Of a stretch of 32,000 bases of DNA, positions 9,258 to 9,767 are shown piece by piece. The first letter of the stretch is position 1, and each line of letters opens with the position of its first letter. The notes under the pieces are model-generated. The model had not been told where the DNA came from, made no database searches, and saw nothing but the letters and a program-made list of their open reading frames with translations. The DNA lies in the NCBI GenBank assembly GCA_017934955.1, contig JAGBIO010000002.1, positions 20,177 to 52,176 on the forward strand, written 5' to 3'. Source of the DNA: Clostridia bacterium (lineage in GTDB: Bacteria > Bacillota > Clostridia > TANB77 > RGIG9151). Made by a program: the position numbers and the translations under genes.

Positions 9258-9333
9258 GGTGTGCCTGAGACGATTCGAACGTCCGGCCAACGGCTTAGAA
9301 GGCCGTTGCTCTATCCTGCTGAGCTACAGGCAC
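9257..9333 (-). tRNA. tRNA-Arg (anticodon TCT), CCA encoded
   Basis: The reverse complement folds as a cloverleaf: acceptor GTGCCTG/CAGGCAC, D arm GCTC..GAGC, anticodon stem ACGGC/GCCGT with loop CTTCTAA, T arm GGACG TTCGAAT CGTCT, discriminator A + CCA. 77 nt. Confidence 0.93.
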
Positions 9334-9453: not shown

Positions 9454-9653
9454 TGTAGGGACAGCATTCATGCTGTCCTTTATTCCACATTTTCTGTGGA
9501 CAGCATAGTAGTCAAAACTTCCCAATCACTTCGTTCTTGGAGTTTTTTTACACAGGACGTACAAGCCATTCACTTCGTTCATGGTGTTACGTCCGCGAAT
9601 GCTGTCCCTACACTATTTATGCTTTTTCTATAAATTTAAGTCTGACCAGTAAC
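9454..9653. repeat. Second inverted doublet. Parts: TGTAG + core (9459-9478, minus orientation); 19-nt spacer; plus-oriented core split into 9498-9507 and 9598-9607 + CTACA (9608-9612); right arm ending TCTGACCAGTAAC (9641-9653).
   Basis: Aligns module by module with 23-133, including the approximately 45-nt right arm. Confidence 0.85.
9508..9597 (+). mobile_element. 90-nt structured insert (MITE-like) sitting exactly in the loop of a core palindrome
   Basis: GGACAGCATA | insert | AATGCTGTCC, versus the intact GGACAGCATAAATGCTGTCC at 68-87. The insert starts GTAG. It holds an 11-nt direct repeat TCACTTCGTTC (9526-9536, 9570-9580), each inside a small hairpin (CCAA..TTGG, CCAT..ATGG), and an outer stem GGACGTA/TACGTCC (9555-9561 / 9588-9594). 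Confidence 0.55.
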
Positions 9654-9693
9654 AGAAATTGGTTTCAGTTCAGACTAAAGTTGTTGCAAATAT

Positions 9694-9767
9694 ATCGGTA
9701 CGTCAAGGACGCCGTCTCCTACAATGGTTGTAGCATCATTATAAAAAGCTATATTCTGAACTGTAAC
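9694..9767 (+). repeat. Composite element with the second core type: ATCGGTACGTCAAGGACGCCGTCTCC + TACA (9694-9723), degenerate CAATGGT..ATCATT hairpin, right arm AAAGCTATATTCTGAACTGTAAC
   Basis: The reverse complement of 9694-9723 matches 18138-18167 at 27 of 30 positions. The downstream modules match 22501-22551. Confidence 0.75.

Follow-up and report, generated by a model that had tools for sequence, protein, structure and literature searches.

The interrupted REP doublet

The window, that is, the whole stretch of 32,000 nucleotides analysed here, lies on contig C3 of a 1.57-Mb genome assembled in 35 contigs with 38.8% G+C. As seen in Table 1, a doublet of REP hairpins is located between a minus-strand tRNA gene (9260-9333) and a plus-strand short-chain dehydrogenase gene of the SDR family (from 9847). 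One hairpin of the doublet is intact, and the other is interrupted by an insert of 90 nt. In the window, 36 occurrences of the arm GGACAGCAT were counted, whereas chance would give 3, and the right-hand frame TATAAATTTAAGTCTGA is also present beside about 10 further insert-bearing doublets of the genome. Additionally, the third REP family described below is represented at 9696-9722 by a degenerate copy in inverted orientation (CGGTACGTCAAGGACGCCGTCTCCTAC), about 100 nt downstream of the interrupted REP.

Table 1. Features of the interrupted doublet (positions of the window)
Feature	Start	End	Strand	Remarks
Outer inverted repeat, left arm (GGTTACAGGTCAGGCTTAAC)	9410	9429		Frames the REP doublet; complementary to 9637-9654
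Intact partner REP: GTAG tag and GGACAGCAT-TC-ATGCTGTCC	9455	9478	+	GTAG at 9455-9458
Spacer of the doublet, 19 nt	9479	9497		Commonest doublet spacer length in the genome
Interrupted REP, left arm GGACAGCAT and first loop base	9498	9507	+	Arm 9498-9506, loop base A 9507
Two-hairpin element, 90 nt	9508	9597	-	Subfamily A, GTAG variant
Hairpin 1 of the element	9508	9551		GTA/TAC closing pairs, CAAAAC-T/AGTTTT stem, CCAA/TTGG, tip 9526-9536
Hairpin 2 of the element	9555	9594		GGACGTAC...GTTACGTCC stem, CCAT/ATGG, tip 9570-9580
Interrupted REP, second loop base, right arm ATGCTGTCC and CTAC	9598	9611	+	Loop base A 9598, arm 9599-9607, CTAC 9608-9611
Outer inverted repeat, right arm (TTAAGTCTGACCAGTAAC)	9637	9654		Read in the sequence

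When the flanks of the insert are joined, GGACAGCATAAATGCTGTCC with the loop AA (TT in the complement) is obtained, and 283 intact copies of this loop form of the stem family exist in the genome. The insert, which starts with GTAG and ends with GCG, splits the REP hairpin precisely between its two loop bases, and the CTAC after the right arm is the complement of the GTAG tag. Both strands of the segment 9490-9616 fold into a three-way junction, with two inner hairpins enclosed by the REP stem; compared with shuffles, the z values are -3.6 and -3.4. The insert is 100% identical to two other genomic copies. Logan contigs that contain both neighbouring genes end at the repeats, and the matches to the SDR gene in congeners are only paralogues of 36-40% identity.

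These observations agree with a preliminary description of the locus, in which a 90-nt insert beginning with GTAG was placed exactly in the loop of a palindrome and no target duplication was seen; direct reading of the sequence gave the same result at both joints. The 11-nt direct repeat TCACTTCGTTC noticed there is exact at both tips, as are the stems CCAA..TTGG and CCAT..ATGG by which its two hairpins were said to differ, and GGACGTA (9555-9561) does pair with TACGTCC (9588-9594). One correction concerns the 11-nt loops of the two small hairpins, which are not open but have the structured tip GA-AC-GAA-GT-GA on the minus strand.

Host repeats and transposase genes

A total of 905 perfect hairpins of the form GGAC-N5-(2 nt)-N5'-GTCC were found in the genome. 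According to the stem they can be divided into families, of which AGCAT has 605 copies, ACAAT 276 and ACCAT 17. None was detected in the 20 relatives searched. The orientation of these repeats is given by a GTAG or GTAC directly 5' of the stem on the T[TC]-loop strand, which is present in 359 copies, and about 170 inverted doublets are formed. A high-copy repeat with inverted pairs, a GT[AG]G-type tetranucleotide at the hairpin foot and a Y1/HUH gene flanked by its own REPs (a REPtron, here RAYT1) are the marks of the REP/RAYT group, and the host repeats, which show all of these, are typical members of the REP/REPIN/BIME and RAYT systems such as the REPtron of E. coli (PMC3333891, PDB 4ER8).

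Only two transposase-like genes were found in the genome, both RAYT-like Y1/HUH. RAYT1 (C22:48449-48943, 164 aa) contains the HVH and Y motifs and is flanked by a GTAG-REP upstream and a REP-GTAC downstream, both of the GGACAGCAT family. It scores 30.9 bits on Pfam Y1_Tnp (cut-off 23) and matches 4ER8 with E = 8.6e-5; on NCBIfam REP_Tyr_transpos it reaches 64 bits, below the cut-off of 80, and the two RAYTs together range from 62 to 64 bits on this profile. RAYT2 (C32:423-1043, 206 aa) is flanked by REPs of a third family (GTAGGGGACGGCGTCC...), of which about 89 copies exist (GTAGGGGACGGCGTCCTCGACGTCCCG). The reading frame of RAYT2 holds two REPs of its own family (GTAGGGGACGGCGTCCTCAACGTCCCG and its inverse) and is not broken by them, and more third-family REPs stand at its start and just past its stop. 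Such in-frame REPs within the gene are described as unique to TnpAREP subclass 2.4 (Quentin et al., PMC6006769), to which RAYT2 is alike in this respect. In a profile search of the genome, no transposases of the IS110 (DEDD_Tnp_IS110), TnpB or rve types were found above cut-off. The E. coli TnpAREP requires GTAG and a REP on single-stranded DNA, GTAG being indispensable for both binding and cleavage; its cleavage is of low specificity, and strand transfer is also among its activities (PMC3333891).

The inserted element in this genome and in relatives

The insert is a copy of a non-coding element of about 90 nt with two very stable hairpins. In an alignment of 28 distinct copies, 97.5% of the cells are paired, and changes on both sides occur in 13 of the 26 pairs, whereas shuffles gave 5.0 ± 1.4 such pairs and slid controls 0-4. 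Covarying pairs of hairpin 1 are found among GCA/TGC, GTA/TAC and ACA/TGT and among GAAACT/AGTTTC, GAAACC/GGTTTC and GAAATT/AATTTC, and hairpin 2 among CCAT/ATGG, CCGT/ACGG, CTGT/ACAG and CTAC/GTAG. On the minus strand of the window the tips consist of a tandem G.A, 2 bp and a GNA triloop in the pattern GA-xy-G(N)A-y'x'-GA; the inner pairs covary (AC/GT, GT/AC, GC/GC, ACC/GGT) and the loops are GAA, GTA, GCA, GTAA or GAAA. Single mismatches, read by hand, are mostly wobble-compatible on the minus strand, for example CAAAAC...GTTTCT in six copies. Because the GNA-type tips and the wobble-compatible mismatches are both on the minus strand, this is considered to be the folding strand; in the A-type copies described below it runs with the GTAG-tagged strand of the REP.

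The DNA mini-hairpin d(GCGAAGC), which is extraordinarily stable, likewise has C-GAA-G at its core, and mini-hairpins d(GCGAAGC)/d(GCGNAGC) occur in single-strand replication origins (PMC13037366). The tips of the element are similar to them in the C-GAA-G (or GCA, GTA, GTAA, GAAA), the 2-bp closure and the G.A/A.G flanks. However, these mini-hairpins are a structural motif and no element family, whereas here the motif is embedded in a 90-nt repeat.

A BLAST search of the genome yielded about 38 copies of the element in three subfamilies, which answers the proposal of the preliminary description to look for further copies of the 90-mer. Among them, 22 are located between perfect REP arms, with 91-93 nt from arm to arm. 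About 12 further copies touch a REP arm, about 5 with slightly degenerate arms and 7 truncated to one arm, and 4 occupy one fixed site of another repeat, family X, this division of the copies outside perfect arms being a manual tally of the listed sequences; 34 of the 38 copies are tied to REP arms. No loop occupied by any other sequence was found among the 905 REPs, and in a few other cases what looks like an interruption is a neighbouring REP of degenerate sequence. The GC skew around the copies is very strong, with values of 0.2-0.36 in 30-kb windows around every copy examined.

The A-type copies (GCAG or GTAG...GCG) are hosted by REPs with CTAC on the right and with AGCAT or ACAAT stems. 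Read on the tagged strand of the REP, the arrangement is GTAG-GGACAGCAT-T, the reverse complement of the element, and Y-ATGCTGTCC; TC|GCAG is a minor joint. The B-type copies (ACAG...GCA) have the opposite orientation in the REP and a joint shifted by one base, which is CAT-TA|ACAG...CGCA|ATG in all of them. To regard B-type as A-type inverted between the REP arms was considered and rejected, as the predicted joints mismatch unless three further changes are made. C-type copies exist only in family X, at one site. Three types of REP-loop junction can be distinguished, R|GCAG..GCG|A, TC|GCAG..GCG|A and TA|ACAG..GCA|, which span both orientations and two REP stem families. The left flanks of the element are CATA, CATG, AATA, ATTC, ATTA and CG[GAT]C, and no cleavage dinucleotide of the kind known from E. 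coli TnpAREP (C|T) is shared by all types at both junctions on either strand.

Most copies in this genome have lost their own GTAG/CTAC tags. The GTAG start is kept by only 4 copies, including that of the window, and the others have GCAG or ACAG; a CTAC end was found in none of the element copies of this genome. The element does not lie beside RAYT1 or RAYT2. No full-length parent was found among the 35 contigs of this genome, searched for Y1, TnpB, IS110 and rve. The partial copies result from truncation or from interruption by other repeats and are not the ends of a longer element. Classical MITE features are absent, as there is no duplication and any terminal inverted repeat, seen in some copies, does not exceed 3 nt (CGC..GCG). 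No bias in orientation was detected relative to the G-rich strand (15 of 38 co-oriented, p = 0.26) or to neighbouring genes (13 against 12). In Rfam, nothing over the element of the window reached E = 1, the weak overlaps being mir-205 (E = 2.2) and PYLIS_3 (E = 8), far under gathering scores.

Several single loci show further rearrangements. At C1:17360-19131, two element-bearing REPs in direct orientation bracket about 1.6 kb. The upstream one, at C1:19088, has lost everything between the 11-nt direct repeats, so that a single hybrid hairpin is left. At C14:47720-47860, a REP-loop element is cut short by a fourth family of GTAG-tagged palindromes (GTAGGGGCGACTATCAGTCGCCC / GGGCGATTAATAATCGCCCCTAC), which has about 16 copies in all, and three levels of nesting can be seen at this place.

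The family X repeat is about 140 nt long and is present roughly 25 times in the genome (e.g. C33:144930-145067, C34:6903-7038, C24:25922-26058 and C8:10981-11115). Its predicted empty site, CTCGCG-T-TCGGCGCAGG, is intact in at least 15 copies, and this site does not form a hairpin tip but has a helix on each side. CGCG-closed helices are preceded by a long hairpin rich in A and T (TTGTTGTATAGG...CCTATACAACAA); the 3' part consists of a terminator-like hairpin GTGTTTTGC..GCAAAACAC and TTTT, with the alternative pairing GCGCAGG/CCTGCGC. Rfam gave only chance matches for the three family X loci submitted. Family X could be a mobile element, or a family of small RNAs or attenuators.

Four congeners (G002, G003, G006 and G007) have no such REPs, yet carry the element, only in the rpsN-rpsH spacer and in one or two tandem copies. 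With the rpsN stop codon as its starting point (TGGTAG|GGAGACG...), the congener element has GTAG...CCCTAC as its boundaries; among copies with GTAG at the foot of their own hairpins, these stand beside the 4 copies of the present genome. In G003, G002 and G007 (loci L052, L051 and L055), the rpsN TGG-TAG supplies the GTAG tag of the element. Three genomes of the same family (G001, G004 and G008) have short rpsN-rpsH spacers of 52-76 nt without the element; the rpsN stop of element-less genomes is TAA, except in G004, where it is TAG. In the present genome this spacer contains two REPs and no element. The form of the related species, bounded by GTAG...CTAC, is the ancestral one and is like the "double-foot" REPs of subclass 2.4 (PMC6006769), being a tagged hairpin repeat.

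A search of GTDB representative genomes gave one match, a Hadza-gut "uncultured Clostridia" MAG, which is a close relative. An exact core pattern had no match in JGI metagenomes, and in metagenomes the matches of a looser pattern comprised three true homologues besides three that are due to chance. One homologue follows a gene stop (L060), one lies upstream of a gene (L061), and one (L064, JAEEGL016588527.1, around 119-158) is located in the 16S-23S spacer, about 25 nt past the 3' end of the 16S rRNA. The hairpin tips of the latter are GNRA-like (GTAA, GAAA), and its folding strand is the rRNA sense direction. Judged from this distribution, the element predates the REPs and does not depend on them. 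The possibility that the short REP is a central-deletion product of the long form was ruled out, since the element exists without REP arms in relatives.

Origin and spread of the nested element

The nesting of the 90-nt element in REP loops is real and non-random. One hairpin element nested in another had been suspected from the window alone, and this is borne out by the 22 copies between perfect REP arms; as the element is also present in genomes without such REPs, it is a separate entity nested in the REP. On balance, comparison of the copies favors an origin in which a REP-like element entered REP loops and now spreads mainly with its host REPs. The entry would have been made into the 2-nt apical loop, immediately 3' of the invariant T that this loop has on the GTAG-tagged strand. 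As the element folds on itself, the REP arms could still pair as a three-way junction, and RAYT, acting on single-stranded DNA, would recognise the REP by its GTAG tag and by the foot of its stem. If it reads only these two parts, it would mobilise a REP with its cargo like ordinary REPs. Copies would multiply mainly as REP cargo, and selection for those that still fold may have produced the compensatory changes. Such a two-step account, with few entries followed by amplification as RAYT-mobilised cargo, is the most economical, and the whole looks like a parasite riding inside a parasite and not like a new gene.

Several signs of hitch-hiking can be observed. Element subtypes track their hosts, with CAAAAC in GGACAGCAT hosts (AGCAT) and CGAAAC in GGACACAAT hosts (ACAAT); each subfamily has one fixed, idiosyncratic junction; and a CTAC end belongs to about 20 of the 22 A-type hosts compared to about 44% of all REPs. 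Probably, three or more entries were made into REP loops and one or more into a second repeat family. Because chimeric hosts exist, the GGACACAAT-hosted copies could come from GGACAGCAT-hosted ones by arm conversion, and the independent entries may therefore number fewer than three. The founding entry has no known enzymology, and its junctions follow neither the C|T rule nor a constant target word. The host flanks of identical elements are only 61-96% alike, filled doublets are interspersed among insert-free ones, and the B-type hosts have unrelated outer flanks and mixed tags, the closest B-type pair carrying GTAC and GTAG. Identical elements in diverged hosts, interspersion and mixed B tags fit independent insertion or gene conversion just as well as transport as cargo.

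Independent insertion would be expected of an active mini-transposon that targets loops, in which case most copies would be insertions of their own and RAYT1 or RAYT2 would join the excised single-stranded element into REP tips. The element always follows the loop T immediately, whichever of the two orientations or two REP stem families is concerned, and R in the loop can be A or G, which is also the case for ordinary REPs. The presence of 100% identical elements in diverged hosts, filled doublets whose nearest relatives are empty ones, and B-type hosts with unrelated flanks and mixed tags are in line with this, as is the lack of target duplication and terminal inverted repeats, which is shared with IS200/IS605. 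Nevertheless, such an activity is regarded as doubtful. GTAG is missing from most copies; the B junction (T..A, with Y missing) needs an extra change from the T[TC] loop and yet is identical throughout B; host choice is non-random with respect to the CTAC tag and tracks the element subtype; and there is neither a constant target word, nor an orientation bias relative to GC skew, nor a full-length parent in this genome. Equally tentative is a hyperparasite, for which an HUH transposase would insert the element after the loop T of extruded REPs and the GTAG tag of the host would then be used. If this were true, recognition of a hairpin tip would become known for the first time in a small non-autonomous element, and it would be a natural proof that RAYTs tolerate and move a loop cargo of about 90 nt.

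Spread by gene conversion or by template switching at stalled hairpins would require no transposase and could copy the insert in either orientation; copying from a filled to an empty REP is possible because the arms are identical in all REPs and are inverted repeats. The host at C32:50126 is a chimera with the left arm GGACAGCAT (AGCAT) and the right arm ATTGTGTCC (ACAAT), other chimeric or imperfect hosts are found at C14:3850 and C4:17438, and a copy on contig C30 is half A-type and half C-type with a right flank of family X. Together with the deletion between direct repeats at C1:19088, these chimeras indicate that recombination acts on the element family, and the elements are more uniform than their flanks. 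However, arms of 9 nt are very short for homologous recombination, and neither the first entry into a loop nor that into family X, which has no REP arms, is explained, so that spread without a transposase appears improbable as the general cause. A functional structured RNA or transcript element, such as a signal for mRNA or rRNA processing or stability that became multi-copy by chance, is considered less probable still. In its favor, the copies outside this genome are all in transcribed spacers (at the rpsN stop in four congeners, at the 16S rRNA 3' end, after a gene stop and upstream of a gene), the better-folding strand is the sense direction in every one of these cases, and the stems covary across species. 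These outside cases represent only about four independent events and are not significant. In this genome the window copy lies between genes of opposite strands, Rfam offers no match, and the ties of most copies to REP arms are not explained by an RNA function. The lack of orientation bias relative to GC skew and genes argues against an RNA role here, and also against a strict strand preference of the IS200/IS605 kind. Finally, local decay or chance interruption of one palindrome, which the preliminary description would have recognised by a unique 90-mer without intact hairpins, can be dismissed for practical purposes. It is refuted by 38 copies with precise junctions, by empty sites in hundreds of paralogous REPs and by the covariation.

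Unlike a REP of the known REP/RAYT systems, the insert combines two hairpins that differ from each other, are arranged in direct order and carry structured GNA tips; it lies inside the loop of another REP, stands beside neither RAYT gene and has mostly lost its tags; no description of REPs with loop cargo was found in the REP/RAYT literature covered. Specific insertion within REP sequences is also made by insertion sequences, among them IS1397 and ISKpn1 of the IS3 family and IS621 and ISPpu9 of the IS110 family (PMC1525189). These are 1-1.5 kb long with a DDE or DEDD transposase, and the IS3 type makes target duplications of 3-4 bp, whereas the element here has 90 nt, no ORF, no duplication and no such transposase above cut-off in the genome. 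IS1397 and ISKpn1 reportedly choose the REP loop. With IS200/IS605 and their gene-less PATE-like derivatives, the element shares hairpins near both ends in direct order and the absence of terminal inverted repeats and target duplication, and an HUH Y1 enzyme is the sole candidate mobiliser here. In contrast to them, it has no constant target tetranucleotide or pentanucleotide and no replication-strand bias, and this genome contains no full-length parent and no TnpB above cut-off.

The excision of REPs and REPINs, their integration sites and the tolerance of RAYTs are largely unknown even in E. coli and Pseudomonas. The present genome is a natural series of substrates, comprising plain REPs, REPs in which a 90-nt cargo that folds on itself is present in one or the other orientation, dead-end hosts of chimeric type and the same cargo in another repeat family. 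Whether RAYT reads only the tag and the stem foot, and whether it carries loop cargo, are testable with oligonucleotides and one purified protein. The covariation of this element arises in selfish DNA, and an RNA gene should thus not be concluded from covariation alone. REP/RAYT pairs might serve as small single-stranded-DNA shuttles, provided that cargo in the loop is tolerated.
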